This document shows positions 5,407-53,503 of a stretch of 64,000 nt of DNA, one piece after another. The translations under genes and the position numbers were made by a program. The stretch is from a virus (lineage: Duplodnaviria; Caudoviricetes), in the IMG/VR virus record IMGVR_UViG_3300014204_000153, positions 21,248-85,247 of that record; one strand, given 5' to 3'. The notes under the pieces are model-generated. The model saw only the letters and a list, made by a program, of their open reading frames with translations, had not been told where the DNA came from and ran no database searches. How positions within the stretch are numbered: position 1 is the first letter of the stretch; each line of letters starts with the position of its first letter.

Positions 5407-5422
5407 TTACATAAAATAACCA

Positions 5423-5451
5423 TTGACATTTTGCTTTCTAGATGTTATATT
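5423..5451 (+). promoter_or_regulatory. Early promoter variant, copy 4
   Basis: TTGACA 5423-5428, 17 nt, TATATT 5446-5451. Confidence 0.85.
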
Positions 5452-5456
5452 AATTA

Positions 5457-6284: not shown

Positions 6285-7951
6285 AAGTTATAATGAATGG
6301 TAGAGAATATAATCTTTCTAAATCTGACTTTTTAGCTTCTGGTGGAGAAGGCGATGTTTATGCTAAACCAGAAGGTGTATTCAAAATATACCATGATAAA
6401 ACACGAGTTCTTCATCCTGGTAAATTCGCCGAACTTTCTAAGATATCTAGCAATTTGGTAATTAAGCCAACAGATCTTTTATATTCTGGCTCAGATGTAA
6501 TTGGCTATAGGATGGATTATGTAAAGAATACATATTCGCTCTGTCAACTTTTCACAAAAAGTTTTAAAGATAGAATGGGAGTATCTTCTGATAGAATTCT
6601 TTACTTAGTAAGGAATATGTCTGATACTTTGAAGAATAGTATTCATTCAACTGGTGTTTTAGTAGTCGATCTTAATGAACTAAATTGTTTAGCTGATAAA
6701 GATTTTAATAAAGTGTTTTACATAGATGTAGATTCATGGCAGACAAAGAATTACAGAGCTACTGCTATAATGGATAGTGTTAGAGATTGGAATTCTAATG
6801 ATTTTGATGAAGGCACAGATTGGTTTAGCTTTGCGGTTGTAACATTTCAAATGCTCGTAGGAATACATCCTTATCGTGGAAGATATCCTCAGAAGTTAAC
6901 TCTTATAGATAGAATGAAACAAAAAATATCAGTCTTTAATAAAGATGTATCAGTTCCAACTTCATGTGAACCTTTAGATTCTCTTCCGCCAAGATATAAG
7001 TCATGGTATGAATCTGTGTTTGAAGATGGAATGAGAGATGAGTTTCCTGAAGATAGAAGCACTATGCTTACTGTAGTTAAGAAAGTAAAACTGGCTGGAA
7101 CTGCTTTAAGGATTGAAGAATTATTCTCAGTACCTCCTTCTAATGGGAATATAACAGGTTACTATTATTCTGTTAATTGTGAACTAATTAAGACTTCAAA
7201 TTCTATTCATAAAAATAGAAAATCTTCAGTAAATCAATCTGTTAAAGAAATAATATTTTGGCAAGGTAATTCTTTTGGAGTTAATATAGATCCTGTATCT
7301 GATGATGTAGTAGTATTTGATCTTAATACAGGAAAAGCCGTAACTAATTCAAGAAGATGCACAGATGGTATATTTTTATCTTGTGGAAGATTATATTCTA
7401 AATATGATGATTCTATATTCGAATTCCAATTTGCTGGTTCAGTGTTCAATCCACTTGGGATGTGGAAACTTGTTGCTAAAACAATGCCAATGTCCACAAA
7501 AATTCTAGATGGATTCACAGTTCAAAATATGCTTGGAAGATGGGTAGCTGATATATACCCATCTTCTGGAAAACATATCCAAATTTCTCTACCAAAACTT
7601 GATGGGAAAAAAATTATATCGGGTTCAGCTAGAGGAAATGTTATTGTATTACTAGTTTCTGGGTCTGGAAAATATGATAGGTATATGTTCAAAGTAACAG
7701 ATTTTAATGGTATAGTAGAAGAATGTATTATTAAAGATGTACCATTTTCAGAAGTAAATATGATTTTGCTTGATAGCGGAGTTTATGTATTAATAAGTGA
7801 AGATAGTTCTATTGAATTCTTTAGAAATTCTATATCATCACGAACTGAAGTTACAGATCAAGCTATAAATAATTCTATGAGGCTTTACACTGATGGGGCA
7901 TCTGTAATAGCAGCAGATGGAAATAGACTTCTTAAGATAAGCACTAAATGA
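6281..7951 (+). CDS. Ser/Thr protein kinase with a C-terminal beta-rich domain
   Basis: GGEGDVY glycine loop, VFKIY Lys, VVDLNELN catalytic loop, IDVDS, DWFSFAV. Confidence 0.88.
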   Translation: MKVIMNGREYNLSKSDFLASGGEGDVYAKPEGVFKIYHDKTRVLHPGKFAELSKISSNLVIKPTDLLYSGSDVIGYRMDYVKNTYSLCQLFTKSFKDRMGVSSDRILYLVRNMSDTLKNSIHSTGVLVVDLNELNCLADKDFNKVFYIDVDSWQTKNYRATAIMDSVRDWNSNDFDEGTDWFSFAVVTFQMLVGIHPYRGRYPQKLTLIDRMKQKISVFNKDVSVPTSCEPLDSLPPRYKSWYESVFEDGMRDEFPEDRSTMLTVVKKVKLAGTALRIEELFSVPPSNGNITGYYYSVNCELIKTSNSIHKNRKSSVNQSVKEIIFWQGNSFGVNIDPVSDDVVVFDLNTGKAVTNSRRCTDGIFLSCGRLYSKYDDSIFEFQFAGSVFNPLGMWKLVAKTMPMSTKILDGFTVQNMLGRWVADIYPSSGKHIQISLPKLDGKKIISGSARGNVIVLLVSGSGKYDRYMFKVTDFNGIVEECIIKDVPFSEVNMILLDSGVYVLISEDSSIEFFRNSISSRTEVTDQAINNSMRLYTDGASVIAADGNRLLKISTK

Positions 7952-16889: not shown

Positions 16890-18311
16890 TTGATAGGGAG
16901 CCAATCTTTGCCTATAGAAGAAAATTACAAGAACGTCGAACTGGACTTTGAACTAGCTAAAAAGACTGCTTCGAAAGAAAGAGTAAAGGGTTTTGATCCT
17001 TTCGGTACAGACTTTCTTAAAGGTGTGGTAAAAAAGTCTCCAATAGAATTTGGAGCTATTTTAGACACATCTTTTAATAGTTTCCTTGTGTCTATAATAC
17101 CATACACAAATAATATAGTTAGTAATTTTAATGCTAATGCTGAATATGCTTCTACTTTTGTTAAGAGTGTAACTTTTCCATCTATATCATTTGAAGATGA
17201 ACCTTATCGCAGAGGTGGAAGAACTTATCATGCTGCCACAGATTTTAATGTAGATAAAATTACTTTAACTTGCTATAATGACAGAGGTTATAATTCTCAT
17301 TCATTTTGGCAGTCATGGTTATTCGCTATAATGGGCGGACAATCTGGTAATCAACTTCTTGCTCAAAGGAAATTTCCGTTTGAGTATAAATCATACATAG
17401 ATATATACAAAATAGATAGGTTCACAGATGGTTCAAATAATACCGGTCCAAATAAAGGTATTTTTACTGTAAGAACTGTTGGTGCTTTTCCAACATCTGT
17501 ATCTGCTTTTTCTATGGATTGGGATTCGAAGAATGCTGAAACATTTGAAGTAGTATTATCTGTAGATGAAGTTGAGTTTTATCCTGGAAAGATTGTTCCA
17601 AAAATTTCAAAGTCAAAGGTTTCTTCAAGTATTGCAAGTTACAATTCTTCATCTTCAAAACAACAGTCAGCTATGTCTTTTGTAAAGAAAGCTGATACTG
17701 GAAAAGTAACTCAATCTGAATCAGCTGCACTTAGATTTGCTAAGACACTTGGAAAAGCTACATCAGAAAAACTTATAAGAGCTGGTAAAAACTTACTTAT
17801 AGAAACAGAATATAGAATAAAAGATAAAATAGATAATGAACTTCCACAATGGGCTAGAATTGGTGATATAATTAGATTTGATTCTAATGGAAAAATAATA
17901 TTTAATGATGATGTTCTTATAAGCAGAATAGCTACTTCTATAGCCGGAAGATTAAGTGAATATGGTAATTCTGCAGCAGATGCAATATTTGGTGGAAATG
18001 ATCCAAATTCATATGAAGCTGAAATAGATCCAACTGATATACCGAGTAATTATACATCAAATGATAGAGCTGTATCTTTAATAGCAGCTGCTCTTGCATC
18101 TTCACTTTATCCAGAAACATCCATTGGAGCAGAAAATGTAATAAAATCTGGTATATCTAATCTTCAACAAAGATCTGACTCAGCACAAAGCATAATATCA
18201 ATGTCTGTAATTTCTAATAATAATTCTAATGCTGCTGCTTTAGAATCTTTGGCTGAAGACATCATAGAAAGAGAAATATCTTCTATGGTGTATGGGAGGG
18301 CTTCATTTTGA
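16890..18311 (+). CDS. Baseplate tail-tube initiator (gp54/gp19-like fold) with a C-terminal extension
   Basis: VKSVTFPS…ITLTCYND…FWQSW…GAFPTSVS…FEVVLS tube-like pattern; start uncertain. Confidence 0.6.
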   Translation: MIGSQSLPIEENYKNVELDFELAKKTASKERVKGFDPFGTDFLKGVVKKSPIEFGAILDTSFNSFLVSIIPYTNNIVSNFNANAEYASTFVKSVTFPSISFEDEPYRRGGRTYHAATDFNVDKITLTCYNDRGYNSHSFWQSWLFAIMGGQSGNQLLAQRKFPFEYKSYIDIYKIDRFTDGSNNTGPNKGIFTVRTVGAFPTSVSAFSMDWDSKNAETFEVVLSVDEVEFYPGKIVPKISKSKVSSSIASYNSSSSKQQSAMSFVKKADTGKVTQSESAALRFAKTLGKATSEKLIRAGKNLLIETEYRIKDKIDNELPQWARIGDIIRFDSNGKIIFNDDVLISRIATSIAGRLSEYGNSAADAIFGGNDPNSYEAEIDPTDIPSNYTSNDRAVSLIAAALASSLYPETSIGAENVIKSGISNLQQRSDSAQSIISMSVISNNNSNAAALESLAEDIIEREISSMVYGRASF

Positions 18312-18742
18312 GAAAGTTTTTTGAATCTTTGGAAGAAATAAATTATATTGTATCTGGAAAGACTAAATTAATAAAAGATATGTTTTCTATCAATGAATCT
18401 TTTGATAAAACTCAGAAATACAGAGATAGTGAAGATTACTATATTTCATATGAAGTAACAGATGGTGAATGTATAGAAGATGTAGCTGCTAGTGAATATG
18501 GAGATAAAGCTCTTGAATCTGTTTGGATAATAGCAGTAATGAATGAAATGATGGATTTTCTTTTCGATTTTCCAATGAGTGGTACAGAATTAGAAAAATC
18601 AACAGGCTATACAGAAAAATCTGGAAATATAACATCTACAATGTTTGATACGGTTGTAGAATTAAACGATAAAAAGAGGATAATAAAAGTTTTAAAGAAA
18701 GAATATCTCGTTCAATTTGAACGTGATTTCTTCGGAGACTGA
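18308..18742 (+). CDS. gp53: Baseplate wedge protein gp53-like
   Basis: YEVTDGE.IEDVA..EYG…WIIAVMN…DFP LysM-like pattern; RIIKVLK. Confidence 0.75.
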   Translation: MRKFFESLEEINYIVSGKTKLIKDMFSINESFDKTQKYRDSEDYYISYEVTDGECIEDVAASEYGDKALESVWIIAVMNEMMDFLFDFPMSGTELEKSTGYTEKSGNITSTMFDTVVELNDKKRIIKVLKKEYLVQFERDFFGD

Positions 18743-25697: not shown

Positions 25698-27602
25698 ATG
25701 GCTATAAATTTTCCTAATTGGTTTAATACATTTAAAAGAAAAAGTCCAGCTATAGGACCTGAGAACGTTTACAATCCAGTTGTGACTACAAGAGATTATT
25801 CTGATGTAGGTGTTGATAGTTCATTCCAAAAAGGTGATATGCTAGCCGCTACTGGACTATCATATCCCACCGTAGTTGGTTCGAATTCTGTTACAAGCAT
25901 GGGTGGATTTTTTGGAGGTTACTTCTCCTTTAGTGGATGGCAAGGTTCATTTCCACTTCATGTTATGCACAGCTTGGTAAGACTTTATTTATGGATGGGT
26001 CAAGATCCAGATATAAGATATGCTATAGATGAAATAGTTAATGAAGCAGTTTCGACAGCATATAATAATGATATAGTTAAGATAGATTTAGATAGTGTAG
26101 AAATGCCAAAGTCAATTAAAGAAAGAATATCAGACGAATTTGGTGGTATTCTTGATATGATGGAATTCAAGAGGAAATCCTACTATCACTTCAGTGATTT
26201 CTATACAAACGGCAGAATATTTTATAAATTAGATGTTAGTAAGAAAAATGCTAAAGCTGGAATTAAAGGGATAAAAAACTTATCACCATTTGATGTTATA
26301 GCATATTTCGATGGTCAGAATAATGTATTCAGAGATCCAGAATCTGTAAAGATAGATTTTAAAAGAGGATATGTTCTTACAGAAAATGCCTTTAGAAATG
26401 CTTATTATCTTGGTATGACTAATCCAGCTGTAGCAGCTGGTACTCCAAGGATGAGTAATTATTATGTTGCCGTTCCTGAAGAATTGGTAGTTTATCAGCA
26501 CACTGGATTATCTGACTGGCGTTCAAATGTTCCAATATCATATCTTCATCTTGTACTAAGGACTCTTAATCAACTTAGAAACCTTAGAGATGCTATGATA
26601 ATTTATAGAATGACTAGAGCTCCTGAAAGATTTGTGTTTAATGTTGAAGTTGGAAAAATGCAAGCGGCTAGAGCTCAGCAATATGTAGCAGAAGTAGCAT
26701 CGAAACTTAAGCAGACTATAAGTTATGTTCCAGAAACCGGTCAGTTTAAAGACATGGAAGAAAAGCTTCAGATATACAAAGATTGGTATTTCCCTAAGGT
26801 AGACGGCAAAGGTACAGATGTAGACGTTCTTCAGAGCGGTAACATGCAGGGTCAGTTAGAGGAAGTCCAAGCTATTCGGAAGGACCTGTTCATGCAACTG
26901 TTCATCCCTCCGAACAGATATATTGATGATCATTCAATGATGAACTTCGGTTCCATGGGAGACATGGAGAAGTCAGAAGTAAAATTCTTCAAGTTCATAT
27001 CTAGACTTCAACTACAGTATAGTTCGGTATTTTATGATATGTTAAGAATGCAACTTAGTATGAAAAATATTATGACTGCTAAAGAATTTGATAAGATAAA
27101 AGGTTCTATAAAGTTCTCTTGGGGTTCAGAGAACGTATACAGCGAGGCTAGAAACTTTGCTGTTATGCAAAGGAAAGCAAGTGTTCTTGGTCAGTTTGAA
27201 AATTACATTGGATCATATGGCATATCTGAAGATTGGATTACGAAGAATGTTATGGGATTCACTGATGAGGAAATAAAAGATAATGAAAGTACAGTTTTAG
27301 ATTCAATGAAGAAAAAGAACTACCGCGACAGAATTAAGAATGGCCAGATATTGTTCGATGAGAATGGTAAAGAAATAAAAGATCCGTATGGAACAGGTGG
27401 TGGTGGAATGGATGCTAGTGGTGGTGGAGAAGCGCCCGCAGATGGTGAAGAAGTTCCACCTGAAGAAGGTGGTGGAGAACAACCAGAAGGTGAAGCTGGA
27501 AATGCAGAAACGTCTGGAGAAGATAAAGAGAAGACTGAAAGCGTATTAATAGTTAAATCTAGATTTAAGGATCTTCTGTTAGAGAGGTTAAAAGATAAAT
27601 GA
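25698..27602 (+). CDS. gp20: Portal protein
   Basis: AIDEIVNEA, ISYLH, DAMIIYRMTRAPERFVFNVEVGKM, acidic Gly-rich tail. Confidence 0.95.
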   Translation: MAINFPNWFNTFKRKSPAIGPENVYNPVVTTRDYSDVGVDSSFQKGDMLAATGLSYPTVVGSNSVTSMGGFFGGYFSFSGWQGSFPLHVMHSLVRLYLWMGQDPDIRYAIDEIVNEAVSTAYNNDIVKIDLDSVEMPKSIKERISDEFGGILDMMEFKRKSYYHFSDFYTNGRIFYKLDVSKKNAKAGIKGIKNLSPFDVIAYFDGQNNVFRDPESVKIDFKRGYVLTENAFRNAYYLGMTNPAVAAGTPRMSNYYVAVPEELVVYQHTGLSDWRSNVPISYLHLVLRTLNQLRNLRDAMIIYRMTRAPERFVFNVEVGKMQAARAQQYVAEVASKLKQTISYVPETGQFKDMEEKLQIYKDWYFPKVDGKGTDVDVLQSGNMQGQLEEVQAIRKDLFMQLFIPPNRYIDDHSMMNFGSMGDMEKSEVKFFKFISRLQLQYSSVFYDMLRMQLSMKNIMTAKEFDKIKGSIKFSWGSENVYSEARNFAVMQRKASVLGQFENYIGSYGISEDWITKNVMGFTDEEIKDNESTVLDSMKKKNYRDRIKNGQILFDENGKEIKDPYGTGGGGMDASGGGEAPADGEEVPPEEGGGEQPEGEAGNAETSGEDKEKTESVLIVKSRFKDLLLERLKDK

Positions 27603-28495
27603 AATTTTATCAAATAACAGAATCTATTATATCAGATAAGAAAAATCTTTATGATAAATCTCCATCTGATATAGCTAAATTCTTTGTAGAATCTAGTGGA
27701 AGAAAGTTAGATGTAGCTAAGTCTAGATTAACTTTCTGGAGAAATAGACTTAGAACAAGAGATAAAAATCCAGAAATAGAAAAGAAGTACAGAGATGCTT
27801 TAAATATTATAAATCGAATGGCTGGAAGAAGTTTAAGAAGTAAAGGACATACTGATAATGATTTAATAAGAAAAACAACAGATGATAGAAAATATCTTAT
27901 GGCTATTTCAGAGCTTAAAAAAGAAGCAAAGAGATCTGGAAAATATGTATCAGATAAAGAAGCAGGAAATATAATATCAGCAGTGTGTGAATTTACAAGA
28001 ACTGACTATGCTGATATAAGAAAATATCAAATAGCTGATAATCCAGAAAATTATAACGATACTTTTAAAAAATACTCAGAACAAATTGAAAAATATATTT
28101 CTTTAATGCCAAAGTATAAAGATGGAACTGTTTATAGAGGTATACAAGTAGGAAGTTTTGGTGAACCAAAAGATATAAAAAAATTTGCATTTTTGAAACC
28201 AGGTGATGAAATAGATATGCGTGGAACATCATCTTGGAGTAGTAAAGAAGATGAATCACATGTTAAGAGAAGAAATATTAAGTTTGTTTTAGAAAAGCCT
28301 TTAACTGGAGTATCTGTTAATTTAGTTTCTGAGTTTCCAGCTGAAGATGAAGTTACTTTTTCTAAAGATTCTAGATTTTATGTAAAAAAAGTTAAGCTCA
28401 AAAAAGATCCGGAGCTGTCTGGAGATTATGATGAAAATTCAGATAATTATTATTCTTTTATGCATGTTTACATATATGTAGAGGAAAAGGAATAA
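27599..28495 (+). CDS. Putative internal head protein with an R-S-E ADP-ribosyltransferase domain
   Basis: MKFYQITES leader; YRG, TSSWSS, EDE. Confidence 0.75.
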   Translation: MKFYQITESIISDKKNLYDKSPSDIAKFFVESSGRKLDVAKSRLTFWRNRLRTRDKNPEIEKKYRDALNIINRMAGRSLRSKGHTDNDLIRKTTDDRKYLMAISELKKEAKRSGKYVSDKEAGNIISAVCEFTRTDYADIRKYQIADNPENYNDTFKKYSEQIEKYISLMPKYKDGTVYRGIQVGSFGEPKDIKKFAFLKPGDEIDMRGTSSWSSKEDESHVKRRNIKFVLEKPLTGVSVNLVSEFPAEDEVTFSKDSRFYVKKVKLKKDPELSGDYDENSDNYYSFMHVYIYVEEKE

Positions 28496-28501
28496 TTTAA
28501 T

Positions 28502-29431
28502 ATGAAATTTTATTTTATATCTGAATCTATAATATCAGACAAGAAAAAGCTATTAGATAAAAATCCAATAGAAATAGCTAATTATTTCATATCTTCAAGT
28601 AATAATAATATCCAAGCTGCTTTAAATAGAGCAGTCTTTTGGAGTAATAGAATAACTTCAGATAGAAAGAATAGTTTTCAAGATAAAGAAAAAGTAAGAA
28701 AAGTAGTAGATATAATAAAATCTATGATAGGAAAAGTAAGTATTACTGGTCATCATAAAGATGTTTTTGATCAAAATAAAGAAATTCATTTTTTTAAAAA
28801 TAATGATCAACATGATGAAAAAGATAGATTAAAACATGCAAGAAAATTAATCATTTCTGATGCAAAGAAAAATGGTTATAAAATAAATGAAGATCATGCA
28901 TATGATATGATAAAGTCTGTGTATGATTTTACTGATTCAGATTATGAAGTTATGAGAAAAATTCAAAGTGATCCAAATTTTAAATATAATGAAGATGAAA
29001 AAGATAAATTAAAATTAAAAAGTAAATATATAGAACAATTTATAAAAATGTCTCAAAAATTTTCTGGAAATACAATATATAGAGGTTTAGAATTTGAATT
29101 ATATAAAAGTTTAAAAGAAACATATGAAAAAAATATGAAAATAGTTAAAGGTTTTTCTGAATTAAAAGAAGGTGAAGAAGTAAATATGTTAGGTACTTCT
29201 TCTTGGACTAGTAATAAAAATGAACGTCATGTAAAAGAAAGTAATATTATTTTTATATGTAATAAACCAAAAAACGGAGTACCAGTTAATCATGTTTCTA
29301 GATATCCAAAAGAAGATGAAGTTATGTATTCAAAAGATGCAAGATTTATAGTTAAAAAAGTTGAAGTTAAAAAGAATAAAGAAGGTGATATAACAAAGAT
29401 AAAAATCGAAGTTGAAGAAAATAACATTTAA
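28502..29431 (+). CDS. Paralogous internal head ADP-ribosyltransferase-like protein
   Basis: MKFYFISES leader; YRG, TSSWTS, EDE. Confidence 0.75.
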   Translation: MKFYFISESIISDKKKLLDKNPIEIANYFISSSNNNIQAALNRAVFWSNRITSDRKNSFQDKEKVRKVVDIIKSMIGKVSITGHHKDVFDQNKEIHFFKNNDQHDEKDRLKHARKLIISDAKKNGYKINEDHAYDMIKSVYDFTDSDYEVMRKIQSDPNFKYNEDEKDKLKLKSKYIEQFIKMSQKFSGNTIYRGLEFELYKSLKETYEKNMKIVKGFSELKEGEEVNMLGTSSWTSNKNERHVKESNIIFICNKPKNGVPVNHVSRYPKEDEVMYSKDARFIVKKVEVKKNKEGDITKIKIEVEENNI

Positions 29432-29445
29432 TATATGAGGGTATT

Positions 29446-29727
29446 ATGAATTACTCTGAAAGAGAAAAGTCAAGAGCTAAATCTGATAGAAATATAAAAG
29501 TTACTTCTCCAGACGGTAAAGTTATCATAGATACTTCATCATTATCGAATAAAAAGACTAAGTTTAGCGATATACTAAATTTAAAATTGAAAATAGAACG
29601 CAATCCTAGTGATGGATCAAAAAAGTATTGGATAACTGGACCAAAAATATTTTTTGAATTTCCAGATGGTACTACTGAAGATGAAGCAAGAGAAAAGTTG
29701 AAAGAAATGAAGAAAGGGAAGAAATGA
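29446..29727 (+). CDS. Hypothetical protein
   Basis: GAGG RBS, 93 aa. Confidence 0.65.
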   Translation: MNYSEREKSRAKSDRNIKVTSPDGKVIIDTSSLSNKKTKFSDILNLKLKIERNPSDGSKKYWITGPKIFFEFPDGTTEDEAREKLKEMKKGKK

Positions 29728-30110
29728 AATTTAGAGATATCATAGAAGATGAAGGTGGAGAAGCTTCTCCAGCTGTTAGTACTATTACTACTGATGATAT
29801 AGCTCAGTTTGGAGATAGAATTGGAGCAAAGAAGAAAAAGAAGCCTCCCATCGCTAAGAAACCTCTTGTCAACTGGAGAAAGAACCATGTAGAAGTAGAA
29901 TCGCTAGTCGCGGAAAGAGATTACAGCGAATTCGACGATCTAAAGTCTGCTTATCCAGCTAAAGATTCTTACTCTATTTTTACTGAAACAGATCCAGCGA
30001 CGAAAGTAAAAAGATACATCATAGAGAAAAACAACAAAATAGTCTTTGGTCCGACCACTGACGAGAAAGCTGCTAGGTCTAAGCTAAACGATCTTAGAAC
30101 AAAAAAATAG
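29724..30110 (+). CDS. MKF-leader protein (putative internal head protein)
   Basis: MKFRDIIED leader. Confidence 0.7.
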   Translation: MKFRDIIEDEGGEASPAVSTITTDDIAQFGDRIGAKKKKKPPIAKKPLVNWRKNHVEVESLVAERDYSEFDDLKSAYPAKDSYSIFTETDPATKVKRYIIEKNNKIVFGPTTDEKAARSKLNDLRTKK

Positions 30111-30156
30111 GATATAATGGAGTAACTAAACATTATTACTTAAAGGAATTATTAAA

Positions 30157-30429
30157 ATGAAATTTAAAAATATTCTTTTAGAAACATCTAAAATTAATGA
30201 TTCAGAGAAGATTATAACTAAAGAAAGACTTAATAGTGGAAATTCTAATGGATTAGTTAGAGAACTGATAAATAAGGCTGAGAACGACGGCTCAAAAAAT
30301 CCATATGCTTCTGCTCTTAGAGCTATTAATGATTATGTCTTGAGAAATAAAGAAAAACTTTCTCCAGAAGAAATGAATGTTCTAATTAGAGCTAGAAGAT
30401 CATTGAGAGCAACAATAGGAAATTATTGA
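30157..30429 (+). CDS. MKF-leader helical protein
   Basis: MKFKNILLE leader. Confidence 0.7.
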   Translation: MKFKNILLETSKINDSEKIITKERLNSGNSNGLVRELINKAENDGSKNPYASALRAINDYVLRNKEKLSPEEMNVLIRARRSLRATIGNY

Positions 30430-30466
30430 TTCTAAGGATAAGTATAAAGAAAAGAAAAGAGAAGCA

Positions 30467-30758
30467 ATGAGAAAACCTCCACTGAACCAAAATTATAAAA
30501 ATATAAAATAGGAGATCTAATATGAAGTTCGTACAGATGATGGAAGATGATAATAGCAGATTCAAAGAACTTACTGACAAAATAGCAGAGCTTAAAGGAG
30601 AAATGAATAGTAATCGTGGATCTGGGGCTGGGGCTGGAGAGCAACATAACCTAATTAAAAGTGATTACATCTATTATAAGAATGAATTAAAAAACCTTAA
30701 AGAAAAAATGAAATTGAAAGCAAAGACTACTAAATGAGAAAACCTCCACTGAACCAAA
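30467..30758 (+). repeat. 25-bp direct repeat (30467-30491, 30734-30758) duplicating the gp4 start
   Basis: ATGAGAAAACCTCCACTGAACCAAA occurs twice, flanking the 30522-30737 gene. Confidence 0.9.
30522..30737 (+). CDS. MKF-leader small coiled-coil protein
   Basis: MKFVQMMED leader. Confidence 0.7.
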   Translation: MKFVQMMEDDNSRFKELTDKIAELKGEMNSNRGSGAGAGEQHNLIKSDYIYYKNELKNLKEKMKLKAKTTK

Positions 30759-31192
30759 GAGGTAGAAGAAATGTAAAAAGAGGTGTATATATACTCATAC
30801 ACCCAGAGAAATACATTGGAGATTGTAACAATGTAATTTATCGTTCAGGATTAGAACTTGCATGTTTTAAATTTCTTGATGCTAATTCAAATGTTAAAAG
30901 ATGGGGAAGCGAAATTGTTCAGATTCCATATTTAGATGCAAGTACTGGAAAGAAAAGAACTTACTTTGTCGATTTATATTTTGAATCAATAACTTTAAAT
31001 GGTTCAACAGATAAAGTCTTGGTAGAAGTAAAACCGTCTAATCAGACAATTCCACCAAGATCAGATATGAAGAATTACAGAGCAGCTGCAGCTGAGTATG
31101 CTAAGAACATCAGCAAGTGGACAAGAGCTAGAGAATGGGCTTCTCAGAACGGTGCAAGATTTGAGATTATAACCGAGAAGGAAATACATTAA
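30734..31192 (+). CDS. gp4: Head completion nuclease gp4 (TnsA-like PD-(D/E)xK)
   Basis: PEKYIGD..NVIYRSGLE, WGSE…IPY, YFVD, VEVKP..QT, F.IITE. Confidence 0.92.
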   Translation: MRKPPLNQRGRRNVKRGVYILIHPEKYIGDCNNVIYRSGLELACFKFLDANSNVKRWGSEIVQIPYLDASTGKKRTYFVDLYFESITLNGSTDKVLVEVKPSNQTIPPRSDMKNYRAAAAEYAKNISKWTRAREWASQNGARFEIITEKEIH

Positions 31193-31701
31193 TGAAATTC
31201 TCAGCAATCCTTGAAGAATCTATGTCTTTAGAATCTTATAGAAAATTCTCTAAAAAATTCTTTGATAAACTTCCAGAAGATATTAGAATATCTATAAGTC
31301 ATTATTCTGGAATGGGTTCTAGAGCTGTTAATATGTTTCTTACTTCTGGAAATGCTGGTAGTGGATGGCCAAAAGATTTATTAAAAAAGATAATAAAAGA
31401 CATAGAATCAATTTCTCAAAATAATGCACTTAAGAATAGTATAGTTGTTTTTAAAGGAGTAAAATACAAACCGAAGGTTGGAGAAAGTTTAAAGACTCCT
31501 GGTTTTATCAGTACATCTGTAAGTAAAGAGATAGCTGAATCTTTTGCTGGATCAGATGGAACAGTTATAATGATAAATCTTCCAATTGGTACAAAAGCAT
31601 TCCCAATTCCAAATTCAGAATTCGAAATGCTTCTATCAAAGCAATATCAAATAAAAATAATTAAATATGATAAAAATATAGCAATTGGAGAATTAAAGTG
31701 A
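31192..31701 (+). CDS. MKF-leader VIP2/exoenzyme-type ADP-ribosyltransferase
   Basis: HYSG…VNMFL, VFKG, PGFISTS…AESFA, EFEMLL. Confidence 0.8.
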   Translation: MKFSAILEESMSLESYRKFSKKFFDKLPEDIRISISHYSGMGSRAVNMFLTSGNAGSGWPKDLLKKIIKDIESISQNNALKNSIVVFKGVKYKPKVGESLKTPGFISTSVSKEIAESFAGSDGTVIMINLPIGTKAFPIPNSEFEMLLSKQYQIKIIKYDKNIAIGELK

Positions 31702-32550
31702 AATTCTCAACAGTACTTAAATCTAATGAAAAGCCTCTTTATTCTGAGACACCAGATAAAATAGTTAATCATTTTTTAAAATCTTCTAAAAATGATAAAG
31801 ATATTGCTTTAAAAAAATTCATATTTTGGTCTAATGGTCTTAAAAAGAAACTTAACTATCAAAATAATAAAATATATGTATATAATGTAGAGACTGCTAA
31901 AAAGATATTATCTAAAAAAGATGAAGAGCATGAAAATTCTAAAATAGATTCTATGATAAATAATTTTAATTTTTCTGAACGAACTAAAAATAGTGTAAAA
32001 TTAGCATTGGAAACTGGATTTAATTCTTTCTCAAAAACAAAGCTTAGTGATGAAGAACAGTCATTTATAGATTCGCATGTTTCTGGAGATCCTAAAACAG
32101 AAAAAATAAAACCAAAATTACTTAATAATGTTAAACATCCAGTTTCTGTATATAGAGCATATAATGATTCTGATATAAAAAAAGATACATTCATTTCTTT
32201 TACTTTAAGAAAAGACTGGGCAGAAAATACAGCAAATGATAATGATCTTAAAGTAATGAAGTTAAATCTTATAGTCGGAGATAAAGTTTTATTTGTTCCA
32301 TTCTATAATAACAAACATATAGTAGAAGTAGAAGTACTTATTCCAAGTAACTTAGTTAAAGAAAGAAATTAATAAAATATAGCAATTGGGGAATTAAAAT
32401 GAATAAATTCTCAGCAGTACTTAAATCTAATGAAAAGCTCCTTTATTCTGAGACACCGGATAAAATAGCTAATCATTTTCTAAAATCTTCCGAAAATGAT
32501 AAAACTGCTGCTTTAAAGAAATTTATATTTTGGTCTAATGGTCTTAAAAA
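31673..32550 (+). repeat. ~170-bp imperfect direct repeat (about 31673-31845 and 32375-32550)
   Basis: Covers the upstream gene end/RBS and the first ~50 codons of two consecutive genes. Confidence 0.85.
31698..32372 (+). CDS. MKF-leader protein, shared N-module + divergent ART-like C-domain
   Basis: VYRA, FISFT…WAE, EVEVLI resemble the R-S-E ART core. Confidence 0.55.
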   Translation: MKFSTVLKSNEKPLYSETPDKIVNHFLKSSKNDKDIALKKFIFWSNGLKKKLNYQNNKIYVYNVETAKKILSKKDEEHENSKIDSMINNFNFSERTKNSVKLALETGFNSFSKTKLSDEEQSFIDSHVSGDPKTEKIKPKLLNNVKHPVSVYRAYNDSDIKKDTFISFTLRKDWAENTANDNDLKVMKLNLIVGDKVLFVPFYNNKHIVEVEVLIPSNLVKERN

Positions 32551-33097
32551 ATTAAACATTACAAAATATGATTTTAATATAGAAACAGCAAAAAAAATAT
32601 TATCATCTAATAATAATGATAAACCGTGGAATGAAATACAAAAATATAATGGGATGGATGTAGATAAAGAAATGAATCAAAATATAATGGATAGACTTAA
32701 TTCTAAAACTCATATAATTAGTGTTTGTAGTGGACATCCTAAAGATTCTAAATTAGCAATTGATGCAGGTGCATCAGAATATCCTCATTTTATATTTAGT
32801 GTTTATAATCCAAGGGATTTTGAAAAAACAGTAGAATATATTAAATCTAAATTAAAATCAAAAGATACAAAAATTAATGCTCATGCATGGGGAGGACCAT
32901 ATGGAAATTGGGTTGTTTGGAATGATAAAGAAGGTTGGAGAAATCATAAATTTCCAGAAGATCCTCAAAAATATAAAATAGACCATATTTCAATTACTGT
33001 TGAATCAACTATAGCACATAATGGAAAAAATCAAAAAATGTTAAATAATTGGTGGGAATTAATTACAAATAAACTAGAAGAATTGGATAACATATGA
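32399..33097 (+). CDS. MKF-leader protein, shared N-module + CSGH-motif C-domain
   Basis: N-terminal ~50 aa nearly identical to the previous gene; ISVCSGHP motif. Confidence 0.65.
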   Translation: MNKFSAVLKSNEKLLYSETPDKIANHFLKSSENDKTAALKKFIFWSNGLKKLNITKYDFNIETAKKILSSNNNDKPWNEIQKYNGMDVDKEMNQNIMDRLNSKTHIISVCSGHPKDSKLAIDAGASEYPHFIFSVYNPRDFEKTVEYIKSKLKSKDTKINAHAWGGPYGNWVVWNDKEGWRNHKFPEDPQKYKIDHISITVESTIAHNGKNQKMLNNWWELITNKLEELDNI

Positions 33098-33519
33098 CAT
33101 CAAAATTTTCAGCAATATTAGAAGATTTCGAAGCCAATGAAGATGGAGCTAAAAAGAAACTTGAGGCTCTTGAAAGATTATTGGTAAGAGTTGGAGCTAA
33201 ACCAGGTGCTCAAAGAGTTCAGGCTCTAAATAATGAAAAGACAGAATTTAAGACTCTGCTTTTCTTTAGAATGAATAATTCTAAAGGTGAACCTGTTGAA
33301 CTAATGGCTGGTCATATAGATGGACAAAATAGAGCAAATAATTATTCTGTTCATAGAAAAGATGGAACAACAAGAGCAGACAAGAACACATATATCGATG
33401 TCGTAAGAGATTCTCCAAAAGATGTTAAAGAAAAACTTCAAGAATTAGTTAATAAGATGGCAAATATAAATGCTGGATTCAGAGAGAAACTTAATTCTCG
33501 TGGATGGAATAAAGAGTGA
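33094..33519 (+). CDS. MKF-like leader protein
   Basis: MTSKFSAILED leader. Confidence 0.7.
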   Translation: MTSKFSAILEDFEANEDGAKKKLEALERLLVRVGAKPGAQRVQALNNEKTEFKTLLFFRMNNSKGEPVELMAGHIDGQNRANNYSVHRKDGTTRADKNTYIDVVRDSPKDVKEKLQELVNKMANINAGFREKLNSRGWNKE

Positions 33520-33755
33520 AATTTAAAGATACGATAAAAGGAATTAGAGATATACCACTTAAAAATGGTGGTTCTAGACTTGTACCAAGAAAAAATGGTA
33601 AATTTTCTGTAGCTAATGCTGGATGTAAAATATGCAATAGTTGCGGACAAATAATATGCAAAGATACAAAGAATGTTGGTTCAGAACAATTTCCTTTCTT
33701 AAAAGAAACTTGGCCAGATAAATGTCCGTCTTGTGGAAATAAGGAATTTAAATGA
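33516..33755 (+). CDS. MKF-leader Zn-ribbon protein
   Basis: MKFKDTIK; CKICNSC … CPSCG. Confidence 0.7.
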   Translation: MKFKDTIKGIRDIPLKNGGSRLVPRKNGKFSVANAGCKICNSCGQIICKDTKNVGSEQFPFLKETWPDKCPSCGNKEFK

Positions 33756-34948
33756 TATTATCACAAAAACCAGAGAATCCATTTCAGATATCTAAAATTG
33801 AAGTAGATGGTTTAGATTTATCTAAACATTTCGCTTCTTTAGTTATAGAAGAGTCTATTTTAAGATCTTTTCCTTATGGAACTCTTACTTTATCTAGAGA
33901 ATTCTTAGATTATATGTCAGACTGGGATGAAGTAGAAATTGGATTCGTTGGTAAAATTGTAAGTATTTCTTGGACTACAGATCTTGATAATGGTAAAAAT
34001 AAAAGGAATGCTGACTTTTTAGTTTATGGATGTAATAAAGATACTAAAGATACCATATCTCTTCTTTTATGTTCTAAAGAAGCTCCAGAATTTTATACCA
34101 AACAGTTTTGTGATTACTGGGAAGATACAGAAACCAGCAACATTATTTCAGATATTCTTAAGAAACATTCAGGAATAAAGAAATCAAATGTAACTCCAGC
34201 TACATCAAAGGTTACATATTCAAATCCACTCCAGTGGACTCCAGCAGCTGCATGTAAATATATCGTTCCAATGATGGATGGAAGTGATGGTTGTGCATAT
34301 TTCTTATTTTCTTCTATTGGTGAATCTGGAATAGAAACAAAATGTATGCCATTCAATAAAATGACTAAGGATGATTCTGATGAAAAAATAACTTTACTTT
34401 CTAAAATACCAGATGATAAAAGAGAAGTTAAAACTAATCTAAGTACTGCATTATATTTTGACTTTAATCCAGCATCTAATAATATACTTCAGCAACTATC
34501 TGATAATGAATTTGGATTATCTGTAATAGAATATGATGTAAAGACAGCTACACAAAAGAATTCTAATATAAATATGTTAGAGAAGAATGTATCAAAGATT
34601 GGTTCTAAAAGTGGATTAACTGAATTATATGATTCCTCTTTTAGAAGTTCTTTTAGGTTTTCTGGATTAAATGCTCAAACTTCAGAGAAGAGTAAATCAG
34701 TTCATTATTTTGTTTCAAATAGTAATATTAGACTTACTCTTCCTGGTGTTAGTTCTAGAAAAATTGGAGTTACTATAGATGTAGATCTTTACTCTGAAAA
34801 GAATCTTATAACGGATCCAAGAAGTGAGAGATCTGGAAAGTCGGTTGTAACTATTATTAAACATCATTTTACACCATTATCATATTTTCAAATTGTATCT
34901 TGCGTGAAAACTGGATTAAACAAATGGAGAAAGAGAGAATCAATATGA
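33752..34948 (+). CDS. Baseplate hub protein (gp27/late-control D-like)
   Basis: I.ESI…GTLTL…, LPG…KIG..IDV, VT.IKHHFT pattern; about 400 aa. Confidence 0.65.
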   Translation: MILSQKPENPFQISKIEVDGLDLSKHFASLVIEESILRSFPYGTLTLSREFLDYMSDWDEVEIGFVGKIVSISWTTDLDNGKNKRNADFLVYGCNKDTKDTISLLLCSKEAPEFYTKQFCDYWEDTETSNIISDILKKHSGIKKSNVTPATSKVTYSNPLQWTPAAACKYIVPMMDGSDGCAYFLFSSIGESGIETKCMPFNKMTKDDSDEKITLLSKIPDDKREVKTNLSTALYFDFNPASNNILQQLSDNEFGLSVIEYDVKTATQKNSNINMLEKNVSKIGSKSGLTELYDSSFRSSFRFSGLNAQTSEKSKSVHYFVSNSNIRLTLPGVSSRKIGVTIDVDLYSEKNLITDPRSERSGKSVVTIIKHHFTPLSYFQIVSCVKTGLNKWRKRESI

Positions 34949-35112
34949 GCAATAAAGAAGACGGAAAAGAACTTCACAGAGCGGCTCTTAATTGCGCAGC
35001 TAAAAGAGATTATGCTGGTTTCAAGAAGAATATCAATGACATAATGGAGAATAAGTTTGACGCTAAAACTACATCAATTGCGCCGACTTTTTTCACTAAA
35101 ATCGAGGAATAA
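34927..35112 (+). CDS. Small prohead core protein (gp67-like)
   Basis: Position before gp21; helical 61 aa. Confidence 0.45.
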   Translation, partial: EKERINMSNKEDGKELHRAALNCAAKRDYAGFKKNINDIMENKFDAKTTSIAPTFFTKIEE

Positions 35113-35780
35113 TGACTGAAAGAGACACTGCTCTATTCGAGTCATTCGGTGAAACGGTTGTAGAAGAAGTATGTAATGAAGGTGAAGAAAAGAATTATTA
35201 TCTTTCTGGATTGTACACCGAATGCGACGTAAAAAATGGTAACGGAAGAACTTATCCTACCTCTATTGTTGAGAGGGAAATAAATGGAAAGATACTTCCA
35301 AAGGTTAAAGCTGGTACAGCTTTTGGTGAATTCGGCCATCCTAAGACTTTAGCTGAAATGCCAAGCATAGATCCATCAAGAATTGCTCACCGTATAGTAG
35401 AAATACAGAAAGAAGGGAATAATATTTTCAGAGGTAAATCTGTACTTGTTCCTGAAGGTCTTGGTAAAGTAGCTATTGCAATGGTTAAAACTGGCGGTGT
35501 TTTATCTGTTTCATCTAGAGGTGTTGGTAGAGTTAATAAGCAGACTGGAGTTGTAGAGAGCAGCTACAATATGTTTACGTATGATGTAGTGCTAAATCCA
35601 GGAATGAAGAAAGCAAACCAAACAGCTGTCATGGAGAATCAAGAATTCTTCGTAAATCAGATTGGAGTGTTTACTGAGGAGGAGTGGTACAAAATTGAAA
35701 AAGATAGATCAAAAATGTTAGATGCTACATTCTTTAGAGCTGACCTTCTTAGTGGGTTAGCTGAAATAGCAAGGAGTTAG
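35112..35780 (+). CDS. gp21: Prohead core protease
   Basis: KNGNGRTYP, GEFGHP, IAHRI, VSSRGVG, TYDVVLNP. Confidence 0.95.
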   Translation: MTERDTALFESFGETVVEEVCNEGEEKNYYLSGLYTECDVKNGNGRTYPTSIVEREINGKILPKVKAGTAFGEFGHPKTLAEMPSIDPSRIAHRIVEIQKEGNNIFRGKSVLVPEGLGKVAIAMVKTGGVLSVSSRGVGRVNKQTGVVESSYNMFTYDVVLNPGMKKANQTAVMENQEFFVNQIGVFTEEEWYKIEKDRSKMLDATFFRADLLSGLAEIARS

Positions 35781-35858: not shown

Positions 35859-36668
35859 ATGTCTAATAAAATAAAGACACTGTTCGATGAACTCAGAAGT
35901 AAGTACCCTGAAGTTATCTCAGAAGAGTTCGCATCGAAAGTTGTCGCAGTTGTAGAAGAAATCGTAGAATCAGAGAAGCAGAAAGCTATTGATGAGATTA
36001 GAGAAACTGAATCTGAAAAGATTCGTGAAGAAATCTCAGAGGAAGTAAAGGATCAGTCTGAAAGTGAGATCGAGAAATTAGTTAATACTCTTGATGTATT
36101 CTGTGAAAATGCTGTCAATGAATTTTGTGATAGCAAAGCAGAACTTCTAGAGGAAGCTACTAAATCTACGATTAGCTCAGTTCTTGCTGAGAAGATGAAA
36201 GAAGTCTTTGAGACTTATGGTATTGTTACCGAGGAATCAGCTGAAGTTAAAGCTGATCTTGAAAAGCAAGTTGAAGAACTCAACGAAACTATCGGTAACA
36301 TGGCTGATACTATTTCTGAACTCAGCGAAGAAAAGAAAAAGTCAGATGCTATCTCAGTCGTCGATGAATTCTGCAGTGAAATGAATATGACTGACACTGT
36401 CAAGTTCTATAAGCTGATTGAAGATTATGATATCGATGATGTTGATAGTTTCAGGGAAAAAGTTGAGTCTCTCGCTTCTGTCTTTGAACAAGGTAAAGAA
36501 TCTGATGAAGACGAAGACGAGGATGAGGACGAAGATCCTGAAGATGGTGGTGGTAGGAAAGTTGAAAAGAAAAATATTAAAGATTCAGATGAAAAAGAAG
36601 ATAAGTGCGAGTCTGATGACGAAGACGCTTCCTTCATCTCGAGAGTTAGAAAGAATCTTAAAAAATAA
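35859..36668 (+). CDS. gp22: Prohead core scaffold
   Basis: Acidic helical protein between gp21 and gp23. Confidence 0.85.
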   Translation: MSNKIKTLFDELRSKYPEVISEEFASKVVAVVEEIVESEKQKAIDEIRETESEKIREEISEEVKDQSESEIEKLVNTLDVFCENAVNEFCDSKAELLEEATKSTISSVLAEKMKEVFETYGIVTEESAEVKADLEKQVEELNETIGNMADTISELSEEKKKSDAISVVDEFCSEMNMTDTVKFYKLIEDYDIDDVDSFREKVESLASVFEQGKESDEDEDEDEDEDPEDGGGRKVEKKNIKDSDEKEDKCESDDEDASFISRVRKNLKK

Positions 36669-36729: not shown

Positions 36730-38247
36730 ATGGCAGATAAAAGGAAAGACATCGTTAAGGCTTATATCAAAGCGGTAGAAGCCGAAGACAACACCGCTTT
36801 TGCTAATTCAAGAGTTAAGCATATAACTGAAGTTGTTCTTGAAAACCAGATAGATCATTACATCGAGACTTCTGGTAAGACTTTTGATTATATCGCTAAT
36901 CAGATCCTTGGTGAAGACGGCACCCTGAATGAGACCGCGGCTGGTTCCTCATTCGCGGATGCTGACGTTGCTAAGTTCGCCGAGATCTATCTTCCGATCG
37001 CAGCTAAGGTTATTCCTTCACTAGTTATTAACAACATGGTTGGTGTTCAGCCTATGACGCAGCCCAACGGGTTCGTGTATGCTATGCGCGCGTTCCATGC
37101 TAAATCTCCGTATGCTGAATCAACTGATATGCGTGGCATGCGGTACACCAATACACAGATTCTAAACTTTGCGACGGCAACCTCCCTCGCGGTTGGATCT
37201 GGTAATTGTTGGTTCATCGCTTCAAGCGGTGCTAAAGGTTACTGCGTTCACAAAGAAGGTACCCTCGCTCTAGTTAAGATCTCAGATGAAGATACTCCGT
37301 TCGCTGCTGGTGACACTGCTACTATTGGCAGTTCATCTTCGGTTACTTATTCTACTGCTGATCTTACTGTGCTTTCAATCTATAATAACGAAATTGCTCA
37401 GGCTGCCGGTCTGTTCAAGTACTTCTCAGGTTATACCAACAGTGGTTCAGCTGAAGGTTCCGCCGCGTTTAGTACTGATCAGGGTCAGTATCCTCAGAAT
37501 GTTAGTGAAGTGCAGATCAGAGTTGAGAGAGAAGCTGTTGAAGCTAAGACCCGCCAGCTGTATGCTGAGTATCCGATCGAAGCCGAACAGGATCTTCGCG
37601 CGATTCACAAACGTGACCTAAGAGCTGAACTCTCTGAGATCACTGCTGGCGAAATCGTTAATGAAATCAACTCCGAGTTCATCGCCAATATCAAGACTGC
37701 TGCTCAGATCGGTGGGTCAACGACCTTCGATATGGAATCAGCTGACGGACGTTGGGAAATTGAAAAATTCCGTTCACTGTGGGTCAGAGTTACACGTGGA
37801 GCTAATCAAATCGCTCAGGCAACTCGCTTAGGACCTGGTAACTTCATCGTTGCTAGCCCTGATGTTTGCACTGCTCTTAGTCAGCTCGACGGCTTTGCTG
37901 CTGCTCCTCCTAAGGGTGCTTTCGGTGGCATGAGTCCTATCGGTGGTGACTGGTATGTTGGTAAGATCGGTGGAACGATGGATGTTTACCGTGATATGTT
38001 CGCTACTACGGATTATATCTCTGTCGGTCGTAAGGGTTCCAATGAGTGGGATGCGGGCTTATTCTTCCTTCCGTACATTCCGCTACAGTTCATCGCAGGA
38101 CAAACACCAGATAATTTACAGCCAAAACTCAAGTTCCTAACCAGGTATGGCAAGGTTGCTAACGTCTTGCGCGCCTCTTCCAGCCAGGTTGCGGATAGCC
38201 GCTATTACCGGTATATTGCAGTTCAGAATCTGTTCGCGAGTTACTGA
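36730..38247 (+). CDS. gp23: Major capsid protein
   Basis: VLENQ, VGVQPMTQPNGFVYAMR, VEAKTRQLYAEY.IE.EQDLRAIH, GNFIVAS, FLPYIPL, F.TRYG. Confidence 0.97.
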   Translation: MADKRKDIVKAYIKAVEAEDNTAFANSRVKHITEVVLENQIDHYIETSGKTFDYIANQILGEDGTLNETAAGSSFADADVAKFAEIYLPIAAKVIPSLVINNMVGVQPMTQPNGFVYAMRAFHAKSPYAESTDMRGMRYTNTQILNFATATSLAVGSGNCWFIASSGAKGYCVHKEGTLALVKISDEDTPFAAGDTATIGSSSSVTYSTADLTVLSIYNNEIAQAAGLFKYFSGYTNSGSAEGSAAFSTDQGQYPQNVSEVQIRVEREAVEAKTRQLYAEYPIEAEQDLRAIHKRDLRAELSEITAGEIVNEINSEFIANIKTAAQIGGSTTFDMESADGRWEIEKFRSLWVRVTRGANQIAQATRLGPGNFIVASPDVCTALSQLDGFAAAPPKGAFGGMSPIGGDWYVGKIGGTMDVYRDMFATTDYISVGRKGSNEWDAGLFFLPYIPLQFIAGQTPDNLQPKLKFLTRYGKVANVLRASSSQVADSRYYRYIAVQNLFASY

Positions 38248-39531: not shown

Positions 39532-39667
39532 TCTACAATTCAGTCTAGATACCATCCAGTCAACTTATCTGACTTTAATATAGGATATTGTATTTTAAAC
39601 AATAAAGTGCCTCTAAAGTCATTCTATGAACCCTAGAGGCAATTCTGGTTGAATGTTGAAAGTATTT
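39532..39667. repeat. ~136-bp dispersed repeat, copy B (inverted relative to 5271-5406)
   Basis: Reverse complement aligns with copy A end to end. Confidence 0.9.
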
Positions 39668-40067
39668 AGTTTTTTCTAAAATGTTCGATAGCAGAAAGAG
39701 ATTTCTTCATCTGATTTTCATGGCCTTCAACTGGTTTTCTTCCAGCCGTTGTTCTAAAACCCCAACTATCTTTCTTTGATATAGTTGGATTTAACTGATA
39801 TCTTGCGGTGCCTCCTGGTCTGTTTTTTGAAGGCTGATGCGAATTAAAACCGCCAGGTCGTTCTTTTTTATACCTAATTTCTCTACGATATGTTCCATCT
39901 GAATGATACAAATAAACTACATCACGATCATCATTGCTAGCTTTTGTATCAAGATATGCTTTAATACCTTTGCTCTTTTGTTTATCTGTAGTAATTTCTT
40001 TCAGACCAATAGTCGAAAAATGGCCGTGTATATCTTTAGCCTCTTCTAATACAGTTTTAAATTTCAA
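39666..40067 (-). CDS. MKF-leader protein
   Basis: MKFKTVLEE leader. Confidence 0.7.
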   Translation of the reverse strand: MKFKTVLEEAKDIHGHFSTIGLKEITTDKQKSKGIKAYLDTKASNDDRDVVYLYHSDGTYRREIRYKKERPGGFNSHQPSKNRPGGTARYQLNPTISKKDSWGFRTTAGRKPVEGHENQMKKSLSAIEHFRKN

Positions 40068-40374
40068 AACTCTTTCTCCTTAGAATTGAAGGATCTTTTT
40101 CTGGGTTTCTTATTTCTTCTTCTAATGATTTAATTGCTGCTCCAATTGATGATTTAAACCATCCAGAAATCTTTTCTTTTCCAGATTTATTTTCACTGTT
40201 TGGAACCATAACATATGCTCTTATATCTCCATATCTTCTTTCATCAAATTTTACTTTGTAATCTATTCCTTTATAATTTACTTTATGATTTGGAAGAACA
40301 TCTCTAAGGCCACCCGGTCTCATTGTTTCATATTGAGAAAAATCACGTTCTTCTAACATATCTCCAAATTTCAT
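40057..40374 (-). CDS. MKF-leader protein
   Basis: MKFGDMLEE leader; late-promoter variant AATAAATA on the minus strand at 40415-40422. Confidence 0.7.
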   Translation of the reverse strand: MKFGDMLEERDFSQYETMRPGGLRDVLPNHKVNYKGIDYKVKFDERRYGDIRAYVMVPNSENKSGKEKISGWFKSSIGAAIKSLEEEIRNPEKDPSILRRKSFEI

Positions 40375-50956: not shown

Positions 50957-51013
50957 CTACTATATAACAATGGTCTGATTGCGTTGTCTTCTATAAAGAG
51001 AAAAGGAAAAAAA

Positions 51014-53257: not shown

Positions 53258-53503
53258 ATGAAATTTAAAGATATAAATGAAAAACATAATAGCTTAATAA
53301 CTAAATCAAATGGCAAGCCTATTAATTTAATAGAATATGCAAAACGTGGTGATTGGTGGTATATGCGCCGTCATGATAGAAAACCACTTGGATTCAGAAA
53401 GACTATTTACACATCACATACTAGCCCAGGTGCCTTACTTGATGTTGTTCAATCTTCTTTACCAAATCATATACATACTATAAATTATCAAGAGTCAGAT
53501 TAA
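53258..53503 (+). CDS. MKF-leader protein
   Basis: MKFKDINE leader. Confidence 0.7.
   Translation: MKFKDINEKHNSLITKSNGKPINLIEYAKRGDWWYMRRHDRKPLGFRKTIYTSHTSPGALLDVVQSSLPNHIHTINYQESD

Follow-up and report, generated by a model that had tools for sequence, protein, structure and literature searches.

We analysed a stretch of 64,000 nucleotides (hereafter the window), which was taken from an 85-kb IMG/VR viral contig (IMGVR_UViG_3300014204_000153) with an estimated completeness of about 48 %. The window carries an array of putative cargo genes placed between the portal and prohead protease genes, inside a T4-type head morphogenesis cluster, and the genome is that of a distant T4-like myovirus, uncultured and of the lytic T4 type. 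Four genes of this array, named here by their first positions (27599, 28502, 31698 and 32399), share a common N-terminal leader followed by a module of about 47 residues (residues 9–55 in 27599), and different C-terminal domains (payloads) are attached behind it.

Putative cargo genes and their payloads

Cargo genes A1 (27599..28495, + strand) and A2 (28502..29431, + strand) are full-length paralogues with 39 % identity (BLASTP 5e-55). The A1 product consists of the leader, the module, a linker and an ADP-ribosyltransferase (ART) domain of the Alt/VIP2 family, and A2 carries the same type of leader, the module and an ART. PF03496 matched A1 at 31 bits and A2 at 21.8–22.6 bits; given the curated cut-off of 23.4 bits, A2 fell just under the threshold, while 27599 and the gene 31192 described below lay above it. 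The catalytic blocks YRG, SSW and EDE are intact in both paralogues. The ART C-termini assigned to both genes in a first-pass annotation of the window were thus confirmed, 28502 scoring below the cut-off but being a clear paralogue of 27599.

The gene 31192 (31192..31701, + strand) encodes a minimal ART of a second type, B (FKG, STS, EFE), which has the leader but lacks the module. It matched PF03496 at 39–46 bits, in agreement with its original description as a leader-only VIP2-type ART, and could be aligned to solved binary-toxin ARTs. In this alignment FKG falls on the YRR of the solved enzyme, which places a Lys at the position of the conserved Arg that binds nicotinamide adenine dinucleotide (NAD).

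Cargo gene B (31698..32372, + strand) contains a leader variant, the module and a putative minimal ART core (VYRA, FISFT, EVEVLI) paralogous to 31192, and it gave a weak phrog_25265 match. Smith-Waterman comparison of the full-length domains of 31698 and 31192 yielded z = 3.9–5.0, with 0–6 of 1000 shuffles reaching the score; the catalytic regions, which were picked after the motifs had been seen, gave z = 7.8. The alignment is colinear and pairs VVFKG with VSVYRA, FISTS..K..AE with FISFT..K..AE, and EFEMLL with EVEVLI (31192 first), and the core of 31698 keeps the Arg (VYRA) where its paralogue has Lys. In the ESM Atlas, a model of 31698 with a predicted local distance difference test (pLDDT) value of 0.64 had PF03496 clusters as structural neighbours, at template-modelling (TM) scores of 0.55–0.64. 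The earlier reading of this C-terminus as ART-like was therefore upheld by its colinearity with the 31192 core, but not by Pfam, by hhalign against the ARTs of the window or by BLASTP against the 31192 core, all of which missed the domain. On balance, we regard an ART fold for the 31698 payload as very probable.

Cargo gene C (32399..33097, + strand) also begins with a leader variant and the module, showing 77 % amino acid identity to 31698 over residues 1–72, and continues into an orphan alpha/beta C-domain of about 160 residues. No relative of this payload was found in Pfam (E ≤ 10), NCBIfam or PADLOC, with hhalign against the ARTs of the window, or in homologue and Smith-Waterman comparisons, and recognisable ART catalytic blocks are absent from it. 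It had been listed among the enzymatic C-termini as a "CSGH domain"; CSGH corresponds to no known signature, and we found nothing that marks this orphan as an enzyme.

In the Smith-Waterman shuffle test, the type A cores of 27599 and 28502 showed no detectable likeness to the type B cores of 31192 and 31698 (z = 0.6). Judged by their sequences, three to four genes of the array appear to be ARTs of the Alt/VIP2 Pfam family, with two lineages side by side in one head locus. All cargo ARTs carry an E-x-E motif, which is typical of arginine-specific ARTs. Word-based homologue searches with the payloads of 32399, 31698 and 31192 returned only the queries themselves, and when 27599 and 31192 were compared with 50,697 phage records by tblastn, the only matches were two weak ones, both to ART-bearing minor capsid proteins of Porphyromonas phages. 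AlphaFold2 single-sequence models were poor (pLDDT 39 for 31698 and 45 for 32399). Elsewhere in the window, Pfam identified an RtcB RNA ligase (1031–2164) and a run of an isochorismatase/nicotinamidase-like protein, a PP2C phosphatase and a protein kinase (3584–7951); the nicotinamidase-like protein, alongside three to four ARTs, could connect to NAD turnover.

Shared N-termini and the recombination footprint

The leader occupies the first 8–10 residues and reads MKFYQITE in 27599, MKFYFISE in 28502 and MKFSAILEE in 31192. For comparison, the T4 internal proteins read from NC_000866 begin with MKTYQEFIAE (IPII/IPIII) and MKTFKEF...ITE (IPI). A leader like the T4 capsid targeting sequence (CTS), ending in (L/I)-x-E, is present in 27599, 28502 and 31192 and partially in 31698 and 32399, whose variant keeps M(N)KFS.VL (MKFSTVLK in 31698) with K at the position of the cleavable Glu. 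This motif starts seven genes between portal and protease and five others in the window, and in at least six neighbouring genes the leader is not followed by the module. Every protein of the array is basic, with isoelectric points of 9.0–9.8. A small open reading frame (ORF) at 33516–33755, which overlaps both flanking genes, starts with MKFKDTIKG, lacking the Glu, and contains two Cys-x-x-Cys pairs that suggest a zinc ribbon.

Behind the leader, a four-way alignment of the module showed 15 invariant positions in 58 columns, including L17, P22, I25, F29, S32, S33, A40, F46, W47 and N49, and these match the pattern by which the shared N-terminal module had first been noticed. Since BLASTP of 27599 against 31698 reached E = 6e-7 over residues 1–54, this likeness is not due to chance. 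Run over the 85-kb contig, a module profile picked out these four sites and no others (E values from 5e-34 to 6e-29). The module is predicted to be a small basic two-helix domain, with helices at about residues 20–29 and 35–51 forming the best-scoring part of an otherwise poor model. Between A1 and A2, identity is 47 % in the module, 50 % in the catalytic core and 28 % in the linker. We also considered the module as a copy of the ART N-terminal helix, and rejected this candidate, since hhalign scored it only weakly, with E = 0.065 for the helices at the ART N-terminus and E = 0.008 for 31192, both at a probability of less than 5 %.

The first-pass annotation had reported a duplication of about 170 bp between 31698 and 32399 that ends where the C-termini diverge. 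We recovered it as two copies of about 175 bp on the + strand, about 89–93 % identical. Copy 1 (31673..31846) comprises the final 25 nt of gene 31192 and codons 1–50 of 31698, and copy 2 (32374..32550) comprises a non-coding relic of the 31192 3′ end and codons 1–51 of 32399. The duplicated piece begins 25 nt upstream of the start codon: in front of 31698 these 25 nt encode the end of 31192 (…NIAIGELK, stop), while in front of 32399 the same 25 nt are non-coding and lie one base past the stop of 31698. Within the genes, 89 % DNA identity holds over 150 nt and the sequences are then unrelated, except that a weaker similarity of the proteins runs beyond the duplication up to residue 72, where identity reaches background. 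The module/payload junctions lie at 31846–31913 and 32550–32615. The relic reveals the direction of the event. In the most recent step, the junction of 31192 and 31698 was copied to a place ahead of the 32399 payload, either as such or as a tandem copy of the whole unit whose 3′ part was replaced.

A leader-plus-module cassette of about 55–72 codons has thus been joined to three unrelated payloads by recombination, and the proposal that one N-terminal unit is combined with different C-terminal domains is borne out by a clear footprint. In addition, payload B is attached to the module in 31698 but lacks it in 31192. We weighed this against a history without swapping, in which the four genes are diverged paralogues of one ancestral ART and the module is the conserved N-terminal helical subdomain of the enzyme. 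Such a history would account for ARTs being three of the four payloads, for 31698 and 32399 being alike in length and in predicted strand/helix order, and for the duplication spacing of 701–704 nt, which equals one gene unit as expected for a tandem duplication. It does not fit the discordant divergence, in which modules match at E = 6e-7 and ART cores A and B only at z = 0.6, nor the presence of core B without a module in 31192, the abrupt fall of 89 % DNA identity to background between 31698 and 32399, or the failure of the 32399 payload to match an ART with any method used. We therefore consider it improbable. The module common to the unrelated payloads A, B and C and the abrupt identity break point, at the level of sequence, to exchange rather than simple divergence.

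A second trace of rearrangement lies within the array, where an exact 26-nt direct repeat (30466–30491 and 30733–30758) duplicates the start of the gp4-like gene (codons MRKPPLNQ) upstream and leaves a 14-codon relic ORF. The two repeats bracket a small leader-bearing gene (30522–30737) with its own ribosome-binding site, and the pair looks like the scar of a cassette insertion.

The same phage, with identical array and gene order, was found in two other assemblies, making three near-identical assemblies among which no variation of the array was seen. Samples that contain the phage are ERZ27247350, SRR6484787 and the IMG sample from which the contig comes. A profile search with the module, suggested at the outset as a way of listing its fused C-domains across phages, returned nothing beyond the four proteins of this phage among 1.84 billion representative proteins, apart from one spurious repeat match, and a pattern scan of IMG/VR found the module nowhere outside this phage. 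At the DNA level, comparison with phage records gave no match for the window. Portal searches of IMG/VR and JGI metagenomes identified a single related contig (L007), whose portal is 60 % identical; its portal-to-protease interval is much shorter and contains no module and no PF03496 gene.

A leader-only cargo gene of the window (29724..30110, + strand) shows 52 % identity over residues 1–59 to L007:9076-9714 and none beyond. The conserved N-terminus includes the leader, GGE.SPA, a lysine run and KKPLVNxRKN, while the C-termini are unrelated and the total lengths are 128 and 212 residues. Here, too, an N-terminal region has been kept while the payload behind it was replaced, indicating that the pattern recurs in the clade. 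The cargo locus is therefore plastic between phages; since the module is private to one phage and the sole relative lacks both module and ARTs, polymorphism of the module family is established within one genome only. The related contig also contains two paralogous ORFs of about 495 residues with Cys-rich N-termini (L007:12699-14183, between protease and scaffold, and L007:17162-18655, after the capsid gene), which have no counterpart at the corresponding positions of the window and resemble mobile elements of the homing-endonuclease kind.

With the module in one phage only, three identical assemblies and a relative without the array, and with no population-level polymorphism or immunity genes found, we do not retain the term "diversifying array" that had been applied to the locus. 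The same data bear on the idea of a true polymorphic toxin system with immunity genes, serving interbacterial competition in the way of the MuF toxins found in temperate phages. A shared N-terminal region with unrelated C-domains and recombination footprints is present here, and a conserved N-terminus with variable C-terminal domains does resemble such toxins (PMC5576092). However, the wide, varying distribution of these systems is not seen, as the module was not found elsewhere and the three assemblies do not vary; the genome is of the lytic T4 type; and no immunity-like gene stands behind the payloads, whose genes follow each other directly. The sole leaderless small ORF (29446) had no family match in Pfam, PHROGs or PADLOC. 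We regard this idea as extremely implausible.

Proposed packaging and injection, and the role of the module

The array is framed by genes of T4-type head assembly. Upstream lies the gp20-type portal gene (25698..27602, + strand; PF07230 Portal_T4 at 5e-103), whose product is about 30 % identical to portals of cultured T4-like phages and whose stop overlaps the start of 27599. Directly downstream are the gp21-type prohead core serine protease (35112..35780, + strand; PF03420 Peptidase_S77 at 1.5e-17) and the T4-type (gp22-type) scaffolding core protein (35859..36668, + strand; PF25623 T4_CASP at 1e-18), followed by the Gp23 capsid protein (36730–38247). The S77 protease is expected to cut after (I/L)-x-E, and the 13 (I/L)xE sites of the scaffold and those at residues 62 and 68 of the capsid protein are as expected with a T4-like protease. 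Embedded in the array is a leaderless gp4-like head completion protein (30734..31192, + strand; phrog_218 at 4e-41; PF08722). From portal to protease, the genes overlap or abut and all lie on the + strand, and no + strand terminators were found between them. In the window, the T4 late-promoter motif TATAAATA was about as frequent as expected by chance, and the array contains no copy of it; sigma-70-like sites were likewise at chance level. Between the cargo genes and the protease, 33752–34948 encodes a conserved protein of about 400 residues that belongs to no known family and is 38 % identical to L007:10193-11404; it probably serves this clade as a core part of the head or neck. Further downstream are two tail-sheath paralogues about 4 kb apart (50984–52969 and 57080–58828), each with a Phage_sheath_1C domain.

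We propose, with a probability of roughly 0.6, that the four genes encode head-packaged, injected effectors of a distant T4-like myovirus, assembled by recombination. By analogy with T4, the leader of 8–10 residues would take each protein into the prohead scaffolding core, the S77 protease would cut past I-x-E (E8) in 27599, 28502 and 31192, the cargo proteins would enter the host along with the DNA, and once there the ARTs would modify host macromolecules in the manner of T4 Alt. Packaging followed by injection is the most likely fate because the genes lie in a T4-type head gene cluster and carry a CTS-like leader. In T4, the 10-residue CTS is enough to load foreign proteins into the prohead core (PMC9026906). 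Its residues 8 and 10 direct gp21 cleavage at (L/I)-x-E; when an acidic residue is substituted at position 10, the protein is still loaded but no longer cleaved (PMC9026906, PMC3012670). The earlier suggestion of injected ARTs appears probable for three to four proteins, but it does not extend to the orphan payload of 32399.

An alternative is that the proteins are not packaged and act as intracellular take-over enzymes like T4 ModA and ModB, their shared N-terminus reflecting common ancestry or a translation signal. Two of the four proteins lack the cleavable Glu, and some leader-bearing genes lie on the minus strand and outside the head cluster, as such a role would allow. The leader-bearing ORFs outside the cluster start with MKF..(I/L/M/N)xE and lie at 39666–40067 (− strand), 40057–40374 (− strand), 53258–53503, 53731–54084 and 18308–18742; none of the five could be assigned to a family. 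Against purely intracellular enzymes stand the location of the genes between portal and prohead protease, with an overlap of the portal stop and no internal terminator, and the close agreement of the leader, down to the I-x-E cut motif, with the CTS that experiments have defined in T4. This alternative strikes us as quite unlikely.

Several points nevertheless weigh against packaged and injected effectors. The steps of packaging, cleavage and injection are all carried over from T4. The proteins 31698, 32399 and 33516 carry K or G instead of the cleavable Glu, so their leader may be retained, and (I/L)xE sites were not significantly depleted in leader-bearing proteins (ratio 0.88 versus 1.18 in controls, p = 0.12). 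As to enzymatic function, 31192 with its Lys at the Arg position may be weak, altered or inactive, and the ART assignment of 31698, whose C-terminus escaped three methods, draws on moderate statistics and a medium-confidence Atlas model. Finally, no conserved cut site was found behind the module in the four proteins, and by the rules of T4 the module is superfluous for packaging, with leader-only genes adjoining.

This last point leads to the role of the module itself, which had been cast as a packaging, ejection or targeting adaptor. A packaging adaptor is not needed here: because the T4 CTS suffices and leader-only cargo lies alongside, the module is unlikely to be required for head entry, and its location past E8, where cleavage is predicted, means that the mature protein would keep it. 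These observations are also those that favour a host-target docking domain, which after injection would bring different enzymes to one host complex and have no part in packaging or ejection. T4 Alt, ModA and ModB converge on shared targets. Docking would agree with retention of the module on the mature enzyme, with the sufficiency of the 10-residue CTS for packaging in T4 (PMC9026906), with leader-only cargo in the same array (ART 31192 included) and with a conservation of the module equal to that of the catalytic core, and T4 Alt likewise has a long non-catalytic N-terminal region ahead of its ART domain. However, none of the host and phage protein sets searched contains a relative of the module, so that no partner can be proposed, and in 29724 about 60 N-terminal residues are conserved while the payload is replaced, which makes N-terminal regions point to the virion side rather than the host side. 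Docking is thus a tentative alternative, and rather doubtful.

We therefore commit to the module as an address domain that is kept on the mature protein and forms the second part of an address. Its role may lie in delivery, that is, in placement within the core or exit with the DNA, which we put slightly ahead of docking, though still at less than even odds; the remaining probability goes to a module that has no function of its own. A more speculative extension is a two-part address in T4-like phages, in which the CTS would serve core entry and a portable helical module of about 47 residues would mark a subclass of cargo. Such cargo may, for example, be placed close to the portal, be ejected in a set order or coupled to the DNA, or retain its leader uncleaved, and the module may be a plug-and-play cassette moved by recombination.

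Injected proteins act ahead of any phage gene expression, which makes them prime candidates for host take-over and counter-defence. The locus and its recombination scar illustrate how such a phage can assemble new, probably injected enzymes: one N-terminal address cassette is transferred to different payloads. If the module does act as a second sorting or ejection signal, the T4 protein-delivery model would be refined, and T4-type capsids could be loaded with foreign proteins in a new way.

Comparison with known systems

A close parallel is found in the CTS-led, highly variable internal proteins established in T-even phages (PMC3012670, PMC9026906). As in T4, the leader M-K-x-[YF]-x-x-[IL]-x-E ends in the prohead-protease motif, the payloads are basic and otherwise unrelated and differ between related phages, and a T4-type scaffold and an S77 protease are encoded nearby. 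Unlike the T4 internal proteins, which are small inhibitors encoded by dispersed genes, the cargo here is encoded between portal and protease, four genes share about 47 more residues past the leader, the payloads, mostly putative enzymes, have 150–240 residues, and two members lack the cleavable Glu.

T4 Alt also belongs to PF03496, with its ART at residues 374–614 behind a long non-catalytic region. The array ARTs share with it the Pfam family, the T4-type phage background and the arrangement in which a short leader, predicted here to be removed, and a non-catalytic N-terminal region precede a C-terminal ART, although pairwise similarity of the cargo ARTs to T4 Alt was not significant. In the T4 record (NC_000866, 123065–123450), alt.-1/alt.-2 are annotated as having arisen long ago by duplication of the beginning of alt, which provides a precedent for a packaged ART of which the N-terminal part alone was copied. 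In contrast to Alt with its 682 residues, the proteins here have 298–309 residues, the N-terminal region is a different, private module, and three to four putative ARTs of two lineages take the place of the one packaged ART of T4.

ARTs that are packaged in the head, and whose genes adjoin head genes, are widespread (PMC9503650), and fusions of MuF domains to interchangeable effectors have been documented both as polymorphic toxins of temperate phages and as polyvalent virion proteins (PMC5576092, PMC9503650). The array resembles them in combining a head-associated N-terminal part with interchangeable C-terminal effectors, of which ARTs are the commonest, beside head morphogenesis genes. MuF is a large, widespread structural domain, whereas the present module has about 47 residues and is confined to one phage lineage; unlike MuF toxins, it is found without immunity genes in a lytic T4-like phage, and exchange is seen within one genome rather than across a family. 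The cargo ARTs resemble the clostridial binary-toxin, VIP2 and C3-type R-S-E ARTs in their catalytic blocks, which consist of the Arg strand, an STS-like strand with its helix, and an ExE motif leading into a hydrophobic strand. They differ in being minimal single domains of about 90–190 residues without a binding component, and in having Lys for Arg in 31192 and S-F-T for S-T-S in 31698.

Because CTS-led cargo, packaged ARTs and fusions of head domains to toxins are established, and because the module is confined to one uncultured lineage, the gain over these systems is modest. What is new here is a private second module, three payload types including two ART lineages, and a clear recombination scar.

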